Translations under genes and position numbers: made by a program
Shown: piece by piece, positions 852 through 5,400 of the stretch
How the letters are laid out: each line of letters begins with the position of its first letter
Position numbering within the stretch: position 1 is the stretch's first letter
Virus record (IMG/VR): IMGVR_UViG_2541047758_000012
Direction: 5' to 3' (one strand)
Length of the DNA: 5,400 nt
Origin: a virus
Taxonomy: Duplodnaviria > Heunggongvirae > Uroviricota > Caudoviricetes
The notes under the pieces: model-generated
Database searches by the model: none
What the model saw: only the letters and a program-made list of their open reading frames with translations
Told to the model about the DNA's origin: nothing

Positions 852-1003
852 CGTTTCCAAAAAATCTCTCGGTCGATGACCTGATGGCGGATGTGGCAGT
901 GATATTTCACTGGCCGCCATCAGAACTGTATCCCATGAGCCTGACCGAACTCATCACATGGCGCGAAAAGGCGCTCCGGCGAAGCGGAAACACGAATGAG
1001 TAA
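576..1003 (+). CDS. E+E': Tail assembly chaperone E+E' fusion made by programmed -1 ribosomal frameshift; join(576..830, 830..1003), about 142 aa
   Basis: Slippery heptamer T_TTT_TTG at 824-830 lies in the E frame (GGT TTT TTG). After a -1 slip, reading continues from nt 830 (GTC GCC GAA CTC ...) for 57 codons to TAA at 1001-1003 without a stop, overlapping the T start codon at 996. This matches the known P2 E/E' arrangement, which is analogous to lambda G/GT. Confidence 0.75.
824..830 (+). other. -1 programmed ribosomal frameshift slippery heptamer TTTTTTG (X_XXY_YYZ)
   Basis: Read directly from the sequence: cggTTTTTTGtcg, with zero-frame codons TTT (825-827) and TTG (828-830). The -1 frame is open from here to 1003. 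Confidence 0.75.
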
Positions 1004-3443
1004 CAATGTAAAATTACAGGTATTGCTCAGGGCTGTTGACCAGGCATCCCGCCCGTTTAAATCCATCCGTACAGCGAGCAAATCGCTGTCGGGGGATATC
1101 CGGGAAACACAAAAATCACTGCGCGAGCTGAACGGTCACGCATCCCGTATTGAGGGATTTCGCAAGACCAGTGCACAGCTTGCCGTGACTGGTCATGCAC
1201 TTGAAAAGGCACGGCAGGAAGCTGAAGCCCTTGCCACACAGTTTAAAAACACCGAACGTCCGACCCGTGCTCAGGCGAAAGTCCTGGAATCCGCAAAGCG
1301 TGCGGCGGAGGACTTACAGGCGAAATATAACCGCCTGACAGATTCCGTTAAACGCCAGCAGCGGGAACTGGCCGCTGTGGGAATTAATACCCGCAATCTT
1401 GCACATGATGAGCAGGGACTGAAAAATCGTATCAGTGAAACCACCGCACAGCTTAACCGGCAGCGTGACGCGCTGGCGCGTGTCAGTGCGCAACAGGCAA
1501 AACTTAATGCAGTAAAACAGCGTTATCAGGCCGGAAAGGAACTGGCCGGAAATATGGCCTCAGTGGGCGCTGCCGGTGTGGGGATTGCTGCTGCGGGAAC
1601 GATGGCCGGAGTTAAGTTGCTGATGCCCGGTTATGAGTTTGCGCAGAAAAACTCAGAATTGCAGGCCGTGCTCGGTGTGGCAAAAGACTCCGCCGAAATG
1701 ACCGCACTCCGCAAACAGGCGCGCCAGCTCGGCGACAACACCGCCGCCTCAGCGGATGATGCGGCTGGTGCGCAGATTATCATTGCGAAAGCGGGTGGAG
1801 ATGCTGCGGCTATTCAGGCGGCAACGCCGGTAACACTGAATATGGCACTGGCGAATCAGCGGTCGATGGAAGAAAACGCGCAACTGTTGCTGGGGACTAA
1901 GGCATCCTTTCAACTGTCAAATGATAATGTCGCCCATATCGGCGACGTGCTCTCGACAACGATGAATAAATCGGCCGCTGATTTTCACGGAATGAGTGAT
2001 GCACTGACTTATGCCGGACCGGTGGCTAGGACTGCCGGTGTAAGCATTGAACAGGCCGCCGCAATGACAGGTGTGCTGCATGATGATAAAATTAGGGGTT
2101 CAATGGCGGGGACGGGGAGCCGTGCCGTGGTCAGCCGTTTGCAGGCACCGACGGGAAAAGCATGGGATGCACTCAAAGAGCTTGGCGTGAAAACCTCAGA
2201 CAACAAGGGAAACATGCGTCCGTTGTTTACCATTCTGAAAGAGATGCAGGCCAGCTTTGATAAACACAGGCTGGGAACGTCCCAGAAGGGTGAATACATT
2301 AAAACTATTTTCGGTGAGGAAGCCCTGAAATCAGCGAACGTTTTGCTGGCAGCGGCAGCAAGCGGAAAACTGGATAAGCTGACCGCCACGCTGAAAGCCT
2401 CGGACGGTAAAACGGAAGAGCTGGTTAAAATCATGCAGGATAACCTCGGCGGTGACTTTAAGGAGTTTCAGTCTGCTTATGAGGCGGTGGGGACTGACCT
2501 GTTTGACCAGCAGGAAGGCGCACTGCGTAATCTCACACAGACGGCCACAAAGTATGTGTTAAAACTCGATGGCTGGATCCAGAAAAACAAATCACTGGCG
2601 TCAACCATCGGCCTCATTGCCGGTGGCGCACTGGCGCTGACTGCTGTCATCGGTGCCATTGGCCTCGTAGCCTGGCCGGTTATCACTGGCATCAATGCCA
2701 TCATCGCGGCAGCAGGCGCAATGGGGGCAATCTTCACGACGGTTGGCAGTGCTGTTATGACGGCCATCGGGGCGATTAGCTGGCCGGTTGTGGCTGTGGT
2801 GGCCGCCATTGTCGCCGGGGCGTTGCTTATCCGTAAATACTGGGAGCCTGTCAGCGCATTCTTTGGCGGTGTGGTGGAAGGGCTGAAAGCGGCATTTGCG
2901 CCGGTGGGAGAACTGTTCACGCCACTGAAGCCGGTGTTTGACTGGCTGGGCGAAAAGTTACAGGCCGCGTGGCAGTGGTTTAAAAACCTGATTGCCCCGG
3001 TTAAAGCCACACAGGACACCCTGAACCGTTGCCGTGACACGGGCGTCATGTTCGGGCAGGCACTGGCTGACGCGTTGATGCTGCCGCTTAATGCGTTCAA
3101 CAAACTGCGCAGTGGTATTGACTGGGTACTGGAAAAACTCGGTGTTATCAACAAAGAGTCAGACACACTTGACCAGACCGCCGCAAGGACTAATGCCGCC
3201 ACGTATGGCACTGGTGGTTATATTCCGGCGACCAGCTCTTATGCAGGCTATCAGGCTTATCAGCCGGTCACGGCACCGGCTGGCCGCTCTTATGTGGACC
3301 AGAGTAAAAACGAATATCACATCAGCCTGACGGGAGGTACTGTGCAGGGGACACAGCTCGACCGCCAGTTACAGGATGCACTCGAAAAATATGAGCGGGA
3401 TAAACGAGCGCGCGCCCGTGCCAGCATGATGCATGACGGTTAA
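996..3443 (+). CDS. T: Tail tape measure protein gpT, 815 aa
   Basis: Long ORF immediately after the chaperone genes. The N-terminal about 180 aa is charged and rich in Q/R/A/L/E (coiled-coil-like); the middle is Ala/Gly-rich; a long hydrophobic Gly/Ala/Ile/Val-rich segment spans about aa 533-612. This is the standard tape measure architecture, and the length matches P2 gpT. The start codon overlaps the end of E'. Confidence 0.9.
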   Translation: MSNNVKLQVLLRAVDQASRPFKSIRTASKSLSGDIRETQKSLRELNGHASRIEGFRKTSAQLAVTGHALEKARQEAEALATQFKNTERPTRAQAKVLESAKRAAEDLQAKYNRLTDSVKRQQRELAAVGINTRNLAHDEQGLKNRISETTAQLNRQRDALARVSAQQAKLNAVKQRYQAGKELAGNMASVGAAGVGIAAAGTMAGVKLLMPGYEFAQKNSELQAVLGVAKDSAEMTALRKQARQLGDNTAASADDAAGAQIIIAKAGGDAAAIQAATPVTLNMALANQRSMEENAQLLLGTKASFQLSNDNVAHIGDVLSTTMNKSAADFHGMSDALTYAGPVARTAGVSIEQAAAMTGVLHDDKIRGSMAGTGSRAVVSRLQAPTGKAWDALKELGVKTSDNKGNMRPLFTILKEMQASFDKHRLGTSQKGEYIKTIFGEEALKSANVLLAAAASGKLDKLTATLKASDGKTEELVKIMQDNLGGDFKEFQSAYEAVGTDLFDQQEGALRNLTQTATKYVLKLDGWIQKNKSLASTIGLIAGGALALTAVIGAIGLVAWPVITGINAIIAAAGAMGAIFTTVGSAVMTAIGAISWPVVAVVAAIVAGALLIRKYWEPVSAFFGGVVEGLKAAFAPVGELFTPLKPVFDWLGEKLQAAWQWFKNLIAPVKATQDTLNRCRDTGVMFGQALADALMLPLNAFNKLRSGIDWVLEKLGVINKESDTLDQTAARTNAATYGTGGYIPATSSYAGYQAYQPVTAPAGRSYVDQSKNEYHISLTGGTVQGTQLDRQLQDALEKYERDKRARARASMMHDG

Positions 3444-3457: not shown

Positions 3458-3937
3458 ATGATGCTCGCGTTAGGTATGTTTGTTTTTATGCGCCAGACGT
3501 TGCCACACCAGACCATGCAGCGTGAATCAGATTATCGCTGGCCGTCAAATTCCCGTATCGGTAAACGGGATGCCTATCAGTTTCTCGGTGTTGGTGAGGA
3601 AAACATGACGCTGGCCGGTGTGCTTTATCCCGAACTGACTGGCGGCAAGCTGACGATGACCACGCTCAGGCTGATGGCAGAGGAGGGGCGGGCGTGGCCG
3701 TTGCTGGATGGCACCGGCATGATTTACGGCATGTATGTCATCAGCAGGGTGAGTGAAACAGGGAGTATTTTCTTTGCAGACGGCACACCCCGGAAAATTG
3801 ATTTTACGCTGTCGCTCACCCGCGTTGATGAATCACTGGCCGCGCTTTATGGCGATATCGGTAAACAGGCGGAATCGCTCATCGGTAAGGCTGGCAGTAT
3901 GGCGACTAAATTCACGGGTATGACGGGGGCGGGATAA
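3458..3937 (+). CDS. U: Tail protein gpU (P2 GpU family), 159 aa
   Basis: ATG-ATG at 3458/3461 preceded by a strong SD; stop TAA at 3935-3937. The translation (MMLALGMFVFMRQTLPHQ...) matches P2 gpU from memory, and the gene sits between T and D as in P2. Confidence 0.85.
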   Translation: MMLALGMFVFMRQTLPHQTMQRESDYRWPSNSRIGKRDAYQFLGVGEENMTLAGVLYPELTGGKLTMTTLRLMAEEGRAWPLLDGTGMIYGMYVISRVSETGSIFFADGTPRKIDFTLSLTRVDESLAALYGDIGKQAESLIGKAGSMATKFTGMTGAG

Positions 3938-5100
3938 TGCTGGATGCACTGACATTTGATGCAGGCAGTACGCTGACGCCGGATTACATGCTGATGCTCG
4001 ACAGCAGGGATATTACTGGCAATATCAGCGACCGTCTGATGAGCATGACCCTGACGGATAACCGGGGCTTTGAGGCTGACCAGCTTGATATTGAACTGAA
4101 CGATGCCGACGGGCAGGTCGGGCTGCCGGTTCGTGGCGCTGTCCTGACGGTGTATATCGGCTGGAAAGGTTTTGCCCTGGTATGCAAAGGGAAATTTACC
4201 GTTGATGAGGTTGAACACCGGGGCGCACCGGATGTGGTCACCATCCGCGCCCGGAGTGCAGATTTTCGCGGGACGCTCAATTCCCGCCGTGAAGGCTCAT
4301 GGCATGACACCACGCTCGGTGCGATTGTTGAGGCGATAGCCTCCCGTAACAGGCTGGAAGCCAGTGTCGCGCCGTCACTGGCCGGAATTAAAATCCCGCA
4401 CATCGACCAGTCGCAGGAGTCTGATGCGAAATTCCTGACCCGTCTTGCAGAACGCAACGGCGGTGAGGTGTCGGTAAAAATGGGAAAACTGTTGTTTCTC
4501 AAAGCGGGGCAGGGGGTGACGGCCAGCGGTAAAAAAATCCCGCAGGTCACCATAACCCGCAGCGACGGCGACCGCCATCATTTTGCGATTGCTGACCGTG
4601 GAGCCTATACCGGCGTAACGGCAAAGTGGTTACACACCAAAGACCCGAAGCCGCAAAAGCAGAAGGTAAAACTGAAACGCAAAAAGAAAGAGAAACACCT
4701 GCGCGCACTGGAGCACCCGAAAGCGAAACCAGTCACGCAGAAGAAAGCGCCAAAAGTACCGGAAGCGCGCGAAGGTGAATACATGGCTGGTGAGGCTGAC
4801 AATGTTTTTGCCCTGACTACGGTATATGCCACAAAAGCGCAGGCCATGCGCGCCGCTCAGGCGAAGTGGGATAAACTGCAACGGGGCGTTGCGGAGTTCT
4901 CCATCAGCCTGGCTACCGGTCGGGCAGATATTTACACGGAAACGCCGGTCAAAGTATCAGGCTTTAAGCGCGTCATAGACGAGCAGGACTGGACAATCAC
5001 TAAGGTGACACATTTTCTGAATAATAGCGGCTTCACGACGTCCTTAGAGCTTGAGGTCAGGCTTTCTGATGTGGAGTACGAAACAGAAGATGATGGGTGA
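3937..5100 (+). CDS. D: Tail protein gpD (Phage_GPD / late control gene D family; gp27/VgrG-N-like baseplate hub), 387 aa
   Basis: ATG at 3937 overlaps the U stop codon (ATAATG, 1-nt overlap); stop TGA at 5098-5100. Length and position match P2 gpD. It contains a lysine-rich low-complexity segment at about aa 234-278. Confidence 0.85.
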   Translation: MLDALTFDAGSTLTPDYMLMLDSRDITGNISDRLMSMTLTDNRGFEADQLDIELNDADGQVGLPVRGAVLTVYIGWKGFALVCKGKFTVDEVEHRGAPDVVTIRARSADFRGTLNSRREGSWHDTTLGAIVEAIASRNRLEASVAPSLAGIKIPHIDQSQESDAKFLTRLAERNGGEVSVKMGKLLFLKAGQGVTASGKKIPQVTITRSDGDRHHFAIADRGAYTGVTAKWLHTKDPKPQKQKVKLKRKKKEKHLRALEHPKAKPVTQKKAPKVPEAREGEYMAGEADNVFALTTVYATKAQAMRAAQAKWDKLQRGVAEFSISLATGRADIYTETPVKVSGFKRVIDEQDWTITKVTHFLNNSGFTTSLELEVRLSDVEYETEDDG

Positions 5101-5118: not shown

Positions 5119-5147
5119 TTGTTTTATAAGGATAAATTAACTAAAAT
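5119..5147 (+). promoter_or_regulatory. Candidate sigma70-type promoter for ogr (-35 TTGTTT, 17-bp spacer, -10 TAAAAT)
   Basis: AT-rich D-ogr intergenic region with TTGTTT at 5119-5124 and TAAAAT at 5142-5147, separated by 17 bp. It is positioned so that a transcript would start about 30 nt upstream of the ogr ATG at 5182. This is a hexamer match by eye only. Confidence 0.3.
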
Positions 5148-5181
5148 GGCACCATCAACAAAACCGGAAGAGGTGCTCGCG

Positions 5182-5400
5182 ATGTTTCATTGTCCTTTAT
5201 GTCAGCATGCCGCACATGCGCGTACAAGTCGCTATATCACTGACACGACAAAAGAGCGTTATCACCAGTGTCAGAACGTGAATTGCAGCGCCACGTTCAT
5301 CACTTATGAGTCGGTACAGCGATACATTGTGAAGCCGGGAGAAGTCCACGCCGTAAGGCCGCACCCGTTGCCATCAGGGCAGCAAATTATGTGGATGTAA
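5182..5400 (+). CDS. ogr: Late gene transcriptional activator Ogr (Ogr/Delta zinc-finger family), 72 aa
   Basis: The translation from ATG 5182 (MFHCPLCQHAAHARTSRYITDTTKERYHQCQNVNCSATF...) has a Cys4 motif CX2C-X22-CX4C and matches P2 Ogr from memory. It is preceded by GAAGAGG about 9 nt upstream and stops at TAA 5398-5400. In-frame upstream starts exist (ATG 5146, TTG 5119), but the 72-aa form is the described protein. Confidence 0.85.
   Translation: MFHCPLCQHAAHARTSRYITDTTKERYHQCQNVNCSATFITYESVQRYIVKPGEVHAVRPHPLPSGQQIMWM

Follow-up and report, generated by a model that had tools for sequence, protein, structure and literature searches.

The closest described system is the baseplate of phage P2, in which gpD was located by cryo-EM as a trimer at the baseplate centre, between gpU and the spike (Klein-Sousa et al., bioRxiv, Sept 2026, 10.64898/2026.09.14.750843). 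According to the main text of this preprint, whose baseplate model is deposited as PDB 29ND/29NE with map EMD-57254, an elongated gpD loop, named L23, lies where hub and wedge meet, and three of the six C-terminal helices of gpU are blocked by it; the gpU helix is modelled in three of the six gpU copies, as far as T150, and contacts the wedge (the “triplex”). The same text names the genera that carry L23, namely Peduovirus, where its sequence is conserved, Vimunumvirus and Duonihilunusvirus, gives a co-occurrence of loop and gpU helix of 19/27 versus 0/18, and uses the R2 pyocin hub as a loop-less comparison. It also describes flexible loops at the interfaces of the P2 baseplate.

The hub gene and its product

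Our window is a stretch of 5,400 nucleotides from a Caudoviricetes genome (IMG/VR record IMGVR_UViG_2541047758_000012). Its genes stand in the order FII, E, T, U, D, ogr, the same as in the annotated P2 record, and the genes of the tape measure and gpU precede gpD in the P2-type tail operon. The DNA of gene D is 97–98% identical to that of P2, and the encoded protein and P2 gpD are identical except for 4 of 387 residues, with T267R among the differences. It matches the Pfam family PF05954 Phage_GPD over residues 51–364 (E 4.7e-27, 95.4 bits against a cut-off of 30.1) and PHROG 52, “tail protein” (E 2e-187). The AlphaFold model of gpD has a mean pLDDT of 88 and a pTM of 0.86, and its top Foldseek match is the R2 pyocin hub 6u5h, followed by eCIS hubs, Mu gp44, T4 gp27 and VgrG, with a probability of 1.00 for 6u5h, 7b5h, 9ki1, 1wru, 1k28 and the VgrG entries. 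gpD is the gp27/VgrG-type baseplate hub of a P2 relative. The features discussed below are as follows.

3833–3934, plus strand: C-terminal extension of gpU, residues 126–159, SLAALYGDIGKQAESLIGKAGSMATKFTGMTGAG, beyond the Pfam domain; partner “helix” of the proposed loop-helix module
3937–5100, plus strand: gene D, baseplate hub protein gpD, 387 aa, gp27/VgrG-type fold (ORF, Pfam, DNA identity, AlphaFold, Foldseek)
4605–4847 and 4630–4881, minus strand: two overlapping antisense ORFs (span 4605–4881) from the ORF list; compositional artefacts, not genes
4612–4656, plus strand: ascending strand and original hairpin turn, gpD residues 226–240, GVTAKWLHTKDPKPQ, in all homologues
4657–4788, plus strand: insertion proper, residues 241–284, 40 longer than the minimal hairpin of the family; putative “L23” loop (indel, hot spot, pLDDT)
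4657–4695, plus strand: basic N-terminal arm, residues 241–253, KQKVKLKRKKKEK, with a short predicted strand (E243–248)
4696–4728, plus strand: conserved tip motif HLRALEHPKAK, residues 254–264 (HP.AK conservation)
4729–4758, plus strand: variable Lys-rich spacer PVTQKKAPKV, residues 265–274, with the lowest column conservation in the loop
4759–4785, plus strand: conserved C-terminal arm PEAREGEYM, residues 275–283, leading back to the descending strand (conservation; predicted strand E281–285)
5059–5097, plus strand: acidic C-terminal tail of gpD, residues 375–387, RLSDVEYETEDDG, which co-varies with the loop and has low pLDDT

A lysine-rich insertion at a hairpin tip

Nucleotides 4636–4770 encode gpD residues 234–278, TKDPKPQKQKVKLKRKKKEKHLRALEHPKAKPVTQKKAPKVPEAR. 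A preliminary description of this DNA had singled out this segment with matching coordinates, while the residue string that it quoted is that of 235–279, a trivial shift by one. Its count of about 40% Lys/Arg with interspersed Pro was correct (15 Lys and 3 Arg among 45 residues, and 6 Pro), and so was its A-rich tract at the DNA level, with 43% A and 4.4% T in the segment compared with 24% A and 21% T in the rest of gene D. The net charge is +14, against −10 for the other 342 residues of gpD. As many as 16 of the 32 lysines of gpD fall within one span of 45 residues, which was equalled in none of 20,000 shuffles of the protein. The lysine-rich stretch is thus confirmed as a real feature of gpD.

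For the comparison with homologues we used about 120 diverse gpD sequences, 105 full-length representatives of the family, and the 120 closest clusters with their 67 distinct loops. Alignment of the diverse set places a 40-residue insertion at the tip of a beta-hairpin (residues 241–284, nucleotides 4657–4788), where in most homologues, the solved R2 pyocin hub included, the hairpin is closed by a tight turn, for example ...WYDTNAAKKKDVVAG... in a loop-less homologue. The preceding residues 226–240, with a predicted strand (E226–231), align with YTGVRAYWHDTNAAKKK of loop-less homologues; the segment as first delimited begins inside them, and the insertion boundaries relative to loop-less homologues lie about 7 residues downstream of those first given. 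Against the R2 pyocin hub this is the sole large indel (query 232–294, chain 217–245), and residues 241–284 are the only site of insertion in gpD relative to the 105 full-length representatives. It is also where the family has its main hot spot of insertion and duplication: 46 of the 105 carry an insertion of at least 5 residues here, and the inserts are unrelated and range from 5 to more than 100 residues. The suggestion that the segment is a lineage-specific insertion in a hub-type fold is therefore upheld by the alignment, in which most gpD homologues are without it. The extension lies in the C-terminal part of gpD and, by analogy with the gp27-family fold, probably in the second tube-like domain.

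The pLDDT of the insertion is 53–60 with one alignment and 35–45 with the other, in a model that exceeds 90 elsewhere. A shallow alignment as the cause of these low values was rejected, since confidence fell further when the prediction was repeated with 86 loop-bearing sequences. The models thus agree with the flexible basic loop of the preliminary description (pLDDT 35–60 within a confident hub fold, net charge +14), and the extension is predicted to be flexible in the free subunit.

Peduovirus, Vimunumvirus ST147-VIM1phi7.1 and Duonihilunusvirus YenM_56.17 have the P2-type loop; phiCTX, phiE12-2, Smp131 and Halomonas 4908 lack it. Because residues 241–284 form the sole large indel relative to the R2 hub, show the same genus distribution and are coupled to the gpU helix, we infer that they correspond to the “L23” loop of the preprint, an assignment drawn from sequence comparison and not read off a structure. 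The lysine-rich loop is almost certainly the one seen at the wedge in the P2 virion structure, and so a genuine and functional feature that has already been described.

Conservation within the loop

Two lysine-rich arms, KQKVKLKRKKKEK and PVTQKKAPKVPEAR, flank the conserved tip HLRALEHPKAK. The V-K-x-K-R-K pattern of the N-terminal arm is common to long-loop and short-loop relatives, and the conservation of R248 in alignment A4 is 90% or more. Of the 67 distinct loops of the 120 closest clusters, 64 retain HP.AK, which also occurs in homologues of 39–49% identity, from Pantoea (P0153), Dickeya (P0207), Ewingella (P0196) and metagenomes (P0129, P0151). The C-terminal arm is conserved as PEA(R/K)(E/Q)G(E/D)Y(M/L) in long-loop and short-loop relatives, and G285 is nearly invariant. 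The spacer 265–274, into which the T267R difference from P2 falls, is the length-variable part, and loop length ranges over 47–58 residues among close relatives.

These data bear on the earlier wording “low-complexity”, which suits the biased composition and the freely varying residues 265–274 but not the tip HLRALxHPKAK and the two arms, which are positionally conserved. In the same way, the loop shares with disordered linkers a compositional bias (40% K+R) and low order (pLDDT 35–60), while its conservation is not one of composition only, as HLRALxHPKAK, VKLKRK and PEAREGEYM keep their positions.

Loss of the loop was looked for in the 120 closest clusters and the best 80 related viral contigs, and no case was found. 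The related loci came from a 12-sequence alignment, and the best 80 were all close relatives; a further search, with a loop-less protein placed first, served to obtain diversity. The dN of the loop is 0.7–2.2 times that of the rest of gpD, higher in most pairs and within about twofold in most comparisons, and amino acid identity is 57–82% in the loop against 63–85% elsewhere in gpD; the comparison used only dN and identity, as dS was saturated (>1 or undefined) in every informative pair. The orthologous loops of the Pantoea, Dickeya and Ewingella prophages have a net charge of only 0 to +3 and keep the module described below. The evidence, taken from sequences, suggests that lysine richness is derived in the P2/186-like clade and not required by that module.

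Covariation with gpU and with the gpD tail

The Pfam domain Phage_P2_GpU ends at residue 125 of gpU, and the 34 residues beyond it contain the motif SLxxLYGDIxxQ. The motif SLxxMFGDLxxQ was found only alongside loop-bearing gpD. After clustering at 70%, SLxxMFGDL was present in 7 of 9 loop-bearing and 0 of 12 loop-less clusters (Fisher p 3e-4); clusters with loop and helix, loop only, helix only and neither numbered 7, 2, 0 and 12, counts that are not phylogenetically independent, and the co-occurrence could stem from one or two gains in a single clade. The pairing of loop and gpU helix is also seen in named phages and in the Pantoea, Dickeya and Ewingella prophages. In addition, loop-bearing representatives have a gpD tail of greater length and acidity (Spearman 0.55, p 1e-9), with a mean net charge of −2.9 versus −0.4 in loop-less ones.

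Proposed role of the loop

The best explanation of the whole is a hub-wedge contact loop which, paired with the gpU helices, couples the threefold hub to the sixfold wedges; we put its probability at about 0.75. The insertion, its position at the hairpin tip, the charge, the low predicted order, the conservation and the co-occurrence with gpU were computed here, and it is the main text of the preprint (10.64898/2026.09.14.750843) that supplies the position at the wedge interface, the electrostatic nature of the contact and the break in symmetry. In the assembled P2 baseplate the loop most likely points outward from the junction of hub and gpU and would touch every second wedge (the gpJ2-gpI “triplex”) by electrostatic contact. 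Contacts to the other three wedges would come from three of the six gpU subunits through their C-terminal helices, and the loop would sterically displace the remaining three helices. The loop-helix pair would thereby couple the threefold hub to the sixfold wedge ring and may help to retain the wedges at the hub up to the moment of contraction, at which such weak contacts would break and the baseplate would detach.

The wedge partner is acidic, with net charges of −18 for P2 gpJ and −7 for gpI. Among nine phages, the triplex charge of the loop-bearing members was −39 to −54 and that of the loop-less members −20 to −37. This is a trend in the expected direction, but the sample is too small and too confounded by phylogeny to serve as a test, and the two groups nearly touch (phiCTX −37, Cartapus −39) and were treated as overlapping. 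Such an acidic partner is consistent with an electrostatic contact of the loop. We infer that the lysine arms, and not only the tip, make this contact; the Pantoea, Dickeya and Ewingella loops are not basic, so the arms may not be the contact-making part.

Other explanations were weighed against the hub-wedge contact. One, a neutral low-complexity expansion that is tolerated by a permissive hairpin tip and does nothing itself, would suit a family hot spot holding unrelated inserts (5 to more than 100 residues), the low predicted order, and the variation of residues 265–274 in sequence and length. It is highly improbable in view of the loop's retention throughout the 120 closest clusters and best 80 related viral contigs, a tip motif conserved down to about 40% identity, a dN mostly within about twofold of the remaining protein, the covariation with gpU, and the report of an ordered contact in the virion (10.64898/2026.09.14.750843, main text). 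The A-rich tract could otherwise be a signal at the DNA level, either for a −1 frameshift at C AAA AAG (4680–4686) or for an antisense gene. The −1 frame is open over 4596–4775 (ending at 4778), and within the segment it and two of the three minus frames are free of stops; AAAAAG is moreover a shifty sequence in E. coli. These frames are open because a T is required in every stop codon on the strand that carries it, which means an A opposite, and the segment has 4.4% T. The first A of the canonical A AAA AAG is missing from the heptamer, close relatives have KRKPKE in place of the motif, the longest A run is 5 and below the need of transcriptional slippage, the alternative-frame products match no Pfam or PHROG family, nor do the antisense ORFs 4605–4847 and 4630–4881, and a shifted product would miss the C-terminal third of the hub fold (after about residue 251). 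With T-poor DNA, an unconserved motif and no family matches, programmed frameshifting and an antisense gene are effectively refuted. As for the antisense ORFs, which the preliminary description had ascribed to the A-rich tract, they do exist and are spurious, but the open antisense stretches extend well past the segment and the antisense frames of gene D are stop-poor elsewhere too, so the tract is only part of the reason.

The remaining alternatives concern what the positive charge would bind. The preliminary description had considered that the loop might face the central channel of the hub and contact the exiting DNA or the tape measure at its C-terminus. The charge of +14 would fit, and the hub ring prolongs the tube that DNA and tape measure traverse; in Mu, contact of the hub's C-terminal domain with the tape-measure C-terminus and with the spike has been described (PMC11915804). 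Against this, the elongated gpD loop sits between hub and wedge according to the main text of the P2 preprint (10.64898/2026.09.14.750843), and it co-varies with the gpU C-terminal helix, a wedge contact on the outside. Orthologous loops that are not basic keep the module, which speaks against a conserved role in binding nucleic acid. The lumen of a tail tube is usually electronegative, and a channel of about 25–40 Å would be crowded by three loops of 40 residues plus the tape measure. We therefore consider a luminal position quite improbable. A role after release is compatible with the wedge contact: exposed polylysine arms might bind LPS core, phospholipid or peptidoglycan and so aid docking or penetration of the tube tip. 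Kondou and colleagues are said to have proposed in 2005 that a positively charged surface of the Mu hub gp44 interacts with the membrane. Lysine richness that is derived and not required by the module may serve something extra. Contracted P2 particles lose their baseplate (10.64898/2026.09.14.750843, main text), which would expose the hub surface. Direct evidence for such a role is lacking, homologous modules function without basic arms, and the strongly acidic wedge partner already accounts for the charge; we regard it as unlikely.

On the hub-wedge reading, a broader scenario can be put forward tentatively, and we think it rather doubtful as a whole. Loop, gpU helix and acidic gpD tail would form a three-part module that predates Peduovirus (Pantoea, Dickeya and Ewingella, at about 40% identity), and the polylysine arms would be a later addition in the P2/186-like clade. 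These arms could serve as a salt-sensitive electrostatic latch that governs the ease of wedge release from the hub and, once the wedges are gone, as an envelope-binding patch on the penetrating tube tip.

The P2 baseplate is among the smallest of contractile tails, so a large part of holding the trigger in place falls to each contact between hub and wedge. A loop by which a sixfold ring of wedges becomes a threefold baseplate is relevant to the licensing of contraction and could offer a handle in the engineering of particles of the P2 or pyocin type. Our additions are modest: a probable residue-level anatomy (basic arms, HPxAK tip, variable spacer), lysine richness that appears derived and not essential, a wider phylogenetic range, and a co-varying acidic gpD tail.

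Comparison with known hubs

T4 gp27 and the N-terminal module of VgrG share the hub fold with gpD (Foldseek 1k28_D, 4mtk, 2p5z) at 8–12% identity. In VgrG the hub is fused to the spike, unlike in gpD, and no equivalent lysine-rich hairpin extension was seen in either in a comparison at the level of the fold. The Mu hub gp44 (1wru, 9ki1), with about 15% sequence identity to gpD, is a gp27-type trimer under a hexameric tube initiator and faces the same threefold versus sixfold mismatch, which in Mu is absorbed by alternate conformations of the pin domain of the wedge protein BW2-i and not by a hub loop (PMC11915804). The closest solved relative is the R2 pyocin hub PA0628 (6u5h; phmmer E 1e-45, Foldseek E 8.5e-24), P2 gpD not being among the PDB entries searched. 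Its domain order and hairpin are as in gpD, but the hairpin region has 29 residues against 63 in gpD and thus no basic loop.

The P2 hub with its L23 loop and gpU helix is the same protein as that of our window, from which it differs at 4 of 387 residues. It likewise has an elongated loop, missing from the R2 pyocin hub and most phages and coupled to the gpU C-terminal helix. The main text of the preprint (10.64898/2026.09.14.750843) gives no residue range for L23, and the correspondence with 241–284 is ours; nor is anything said there of the lysine-rich composition, of the HPxAK tip, of the acidic tail of gpD, or of Felsduovirus-type and Elveevirus-type phages with their shorter basic loops. 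It calls the module “P2-specific”, whereas the module as traced here reaches distant Enterobacterales prophages of Pantoea, Dickeya and Ewingella and is therefore wider than that term implies.

The lysine-rich segment of gpD

The window covers the distal portion of a tail operon of the P2 type; the DNA of its gene D is 97–98% identical to that of phage P2 and its relatives. The product gpD matches Phage_GPD in Pfam, the baseplate hub family, and differs from P2 gpD by four residues, one of them inside the segment examined here (T267R).

1–519: FII, tail tube gene
after FII and before T: E/E'
996–3443: T, tape measure gene
3458–3937: U
3937–5100 (+): D, baseplate hub gene (387 aa)
4636–4770 (+): Lys-rich segment of gpD
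5059–5097: acidic gpD C-terminal tail, residues 375–387, RLSDVEYETEDDG
downstream of D: ogr

Within 576–1003, the gpE ORF (576–851) and an overlapping downstream ORF (848–1003) correspond to the E and E+E' pair of P2, whose record annotates E+E' as the product of a -1 frameshift. The gpU stop and gpD start overlap as TAATG (3935–3939), an arrangement typical of translational coupling. The last gene, 5119–5400, begins at TTG 5119 in the mechanical ORF list; homology with the annotated P2 record sets the ogr start at ATG 5182 (72 aa), and its stop codon is the exact end of the window.

The preliminary description had singled out 4636–4770 as a Lys-rich, low-complexity stretch. These nucleotides indeed encode residues 234–278, while the residue string quoted with them was shifted by one. 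The observation itself is confirmed: the 45 residues contain 15 Lys, 3 Arg and 6 Pro, with a net charge of +14 against -10 for the remainder of gpD, and 16 of the 32 lysines of gpD fall in one 45-residue window, a maximum equalled by none of 20,000 shuffles. The DNA of the segment is 43% A and 4.4% T, and for this reason two antisense frames and the -1 sense frame lack stops. Both antisense ORFs reported earlier exist, and no protein family match was found for either; they are owed only in part to the A-rich tract, because they outrun the segment and the antisense frames of the gene are generally stop-poor. A recoding signal or an antisense gene is contradicted, since the open frames are accounted for by composition and the motif is not conserved.

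An insertion in the hub hairpin

We scanned 1.84 billion cluster representatives in full with HMMER and aligned 122 matches. The stretch bounded by the conserved anchors 222 and 296 is 75 residues long in the query and 35–36 in the commonest form, the latter being a plain beta-hairpin (e.g. DAYSGVRAYWYDTNAAKKKDVVAGLSGNCKRLRTT), so that the segment is an insertion, as had been proposed. By alignment the inserted residues are 241–284 (nt 4657–4788), slightly downstream of the segment first flagged. Among 105 full-length representatives the hairpin site is the dominant insertion hot spot, with at least 5 extra residues in 46 and at least 10 in 40. At no other internal position does the query have an insert; a second, rare hot spot lies at residues 77–81. 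The R2 pyocin hub (6u5h), the sole solved relative found by sequence, aligns without large gaps on either flank, but the alignment breaks between query residues 231 and 295, where it has 29 residues and gpD 63.

The site is occupied by no insert, by a short basic loop (e.g. LHTREPAKKESTTVKRKRRTKKQKKEPEAKQGDY), by the long P2-type loop or, in a few proteins only, by a duplicate of the entire hairpin-plus-helix unit. In some long homologues this duplicate shows up as two separate blastp HSPs against a single 75-residue query, which makes the site a hot spot for duplication as well. The second copy is internal in the gpD homologues P0138, P0156 and P0184 and C-terminal in P0157, P0168 and P0187. 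Several database entries (among P0003, P0006, P0012 and P0008) fuse gpD to sheath or gpV fragments and are probably assembly or gene-calling chimeras. A 339-aa variant lacks 48 residues of the N-terminal half (about residues 99–146) and keeps the loop.

AlphaFold with a 97-sequence alignment gave a confident hub (mean pLDDT 88, pTM 0.86), whose Foldseek neighbours are the R2 pyocin hub, eCIS hubs, Mu gp44, T4 gp27 and VgrG. Blocks 241–280 have pLDDT 53–60 and nearly all else exceeds 90, with strands predicted at 226–231 and 281–285 on either side. That alignment held mostly loop-less sequences; re-predicted with 86 loop-bearing ones, residues 248–287 drop below 50. The persistently low pLDDT predicts a loop disordered in the isolated subunit. 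The flexible, lineage-specific insertion suggested at the outset is the right reading.

Anatomy and conservation of the loop

The loop is present in all of the 120 closest 90%-identity clusters, with 47–58 residues between W231 and G285. HP.AK is kept in 64 of 67 distinct loops and variability is confined to residues 265–274, so the loop is not free low-complexity filler. On these data it can be divided into four parts.

241–253: basic arm
254–264: conserved tip HLRALEHPKAK
265–274: variable Lys-rich spacer
275–283: conserved return arm PEAREGEYM

In pairwise codon comparisons with relatives at 62–83% identity, loop dN amounts to 0.7–2.2 times the value for the remaining residues and exceeds it in most pairs, with amino-acid identity of 57–82% for the loop and 63–85% for the rest; dS is saturated. 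Neutral expansion is contradicted by the conservation data.

Relation to the P2 contact loop and its partners

A bioRxiv preprint of September 2026 describes the P2 virion by cryo-EM (10.64898/2026.09.14.750843). According to its main text, the hub consists of three gpD beneath six gpU, and every second wedge (gpJ2-gpI) is contacted electrostatically by a gpD loop, the "hub-triplex contact loop". Steric hindrance by this loop excludes three of the six C-terminal helices of gpU; the remaining three touch the other wedges, and the baseplate thereby becomes threefold. The P2 variant, named "L23", is described there as conserved in sequence in Peduovirus and present in Vimunumvirus and Duonihilunusvirus, and loop and helix are found to co-occur in 19 of the 27 P2-like phages and in 0 of the 18 others.

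That main text gives no residue numbers for L23, and residues 241–284 are likely to correspond to it, which three independent lines of evidence support. They are the only P2 gpD element elongated relative to both the pyocin hub and the family overall. The distribution agrees: the P2-type insertion with HLRALxHPKAK occurs in a Vimunumvirus (Klebsiella phage ST147-VIM1phi7.1) and a Duonihilunusvirus (Yersinia phage vB_YenM_56.17), is shorter and without the tip in Elveevirus, Felsduovirus, Gemsvirus and Reipivirus, and in the gpD comparison is absent from phiCTX, phiE12-2, Smp131 and a Halomonas phage. Finally, the loop goes with the C-terminal extension of gpU. In 160 viral contigs with gpU adjoining gpD, loop-bearing gpD pairs with a gpU tail carrying SLxxMFGDLxxQ, and loop-less gpD with short, unrelated, often acidic tails; after 70% clustering, 7 have loop and helix, 2 the loop only and 0 the helix only, and 12 lack both (Fisher p 3e-4, the counts being phylogenetically non-independent). 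There is thus a good probability that the feature is the L23 loop of the preprint, and we assign about 0.75 to the whole explanation, a wedge-contacting L23 loop.

Long loops tipped with HPxAK also occur in gpD homologues that share 39–49% identity with P2 gpD and come from Pantoea ananatis (P0153), Dickeya (P0207) and Ewingella (P0196) genomes and metagenomes. The neighbouring gpU carries the same C-terminal motif (loci L182–L186), and these loops have net charges of 0 to +3 and are not basic.

The gpD C-terminal tail is longer and more acidic with the loop (Spearman 0.55, p 1e-9; mean net charge -2.9 with and -0.4 without), and homologues with identities as low as about 40% share its (V/I)(E/D)Y motif; the tail may co-vary with loop and helix as a third element. 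The wedge partner is acidic in P2 (gpJ -18, gpI -7). The net charge of the triplex lies between -39 and -54 where the loop is present (five phages) and between -20 and -37 where it is lacking (four phages). This is consistent with electrostatic contact, nine phages being too small a sample for a test. gpI is acidic (pI about 5) in the loop-bearing phages and phiCTX; in phiE12-2, Smp131 and the Halomonas phage (L178, L179, L180), all three loop-less, it is basic (pI about 10).

The basic loop had also been suggested to face the central channel and act in the lumen, on DNA or the tape measure. This is disfavoured, and the channel-facing placement is most likely wrong: the preprint's main text sets the loop at the wedge, the loop is coupled to the wedge-contacting gpU helix, and orthologous loops are not basic. 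The exposed Lys arms may bind the envelope after wedge loss, which could coexist with wedge contact.

With the wedge-contact loop as the preferred reading, what is new here is modest: the sequence anatomy of the loop, its evolutionary range and the co-varying acidic tail. Since distant homologues keep the tip and the gpU motif with non-basic loops, the loop-helix module is, on sequence comparison, older and wider than Peduovirus, with the tip as its most conserved element and Lys richness as a derived trait of the P2/186-like clade. Its range, extending to distant Enterobacterales prophages, exceeds the "P2-specific" description in the preprint's main text.
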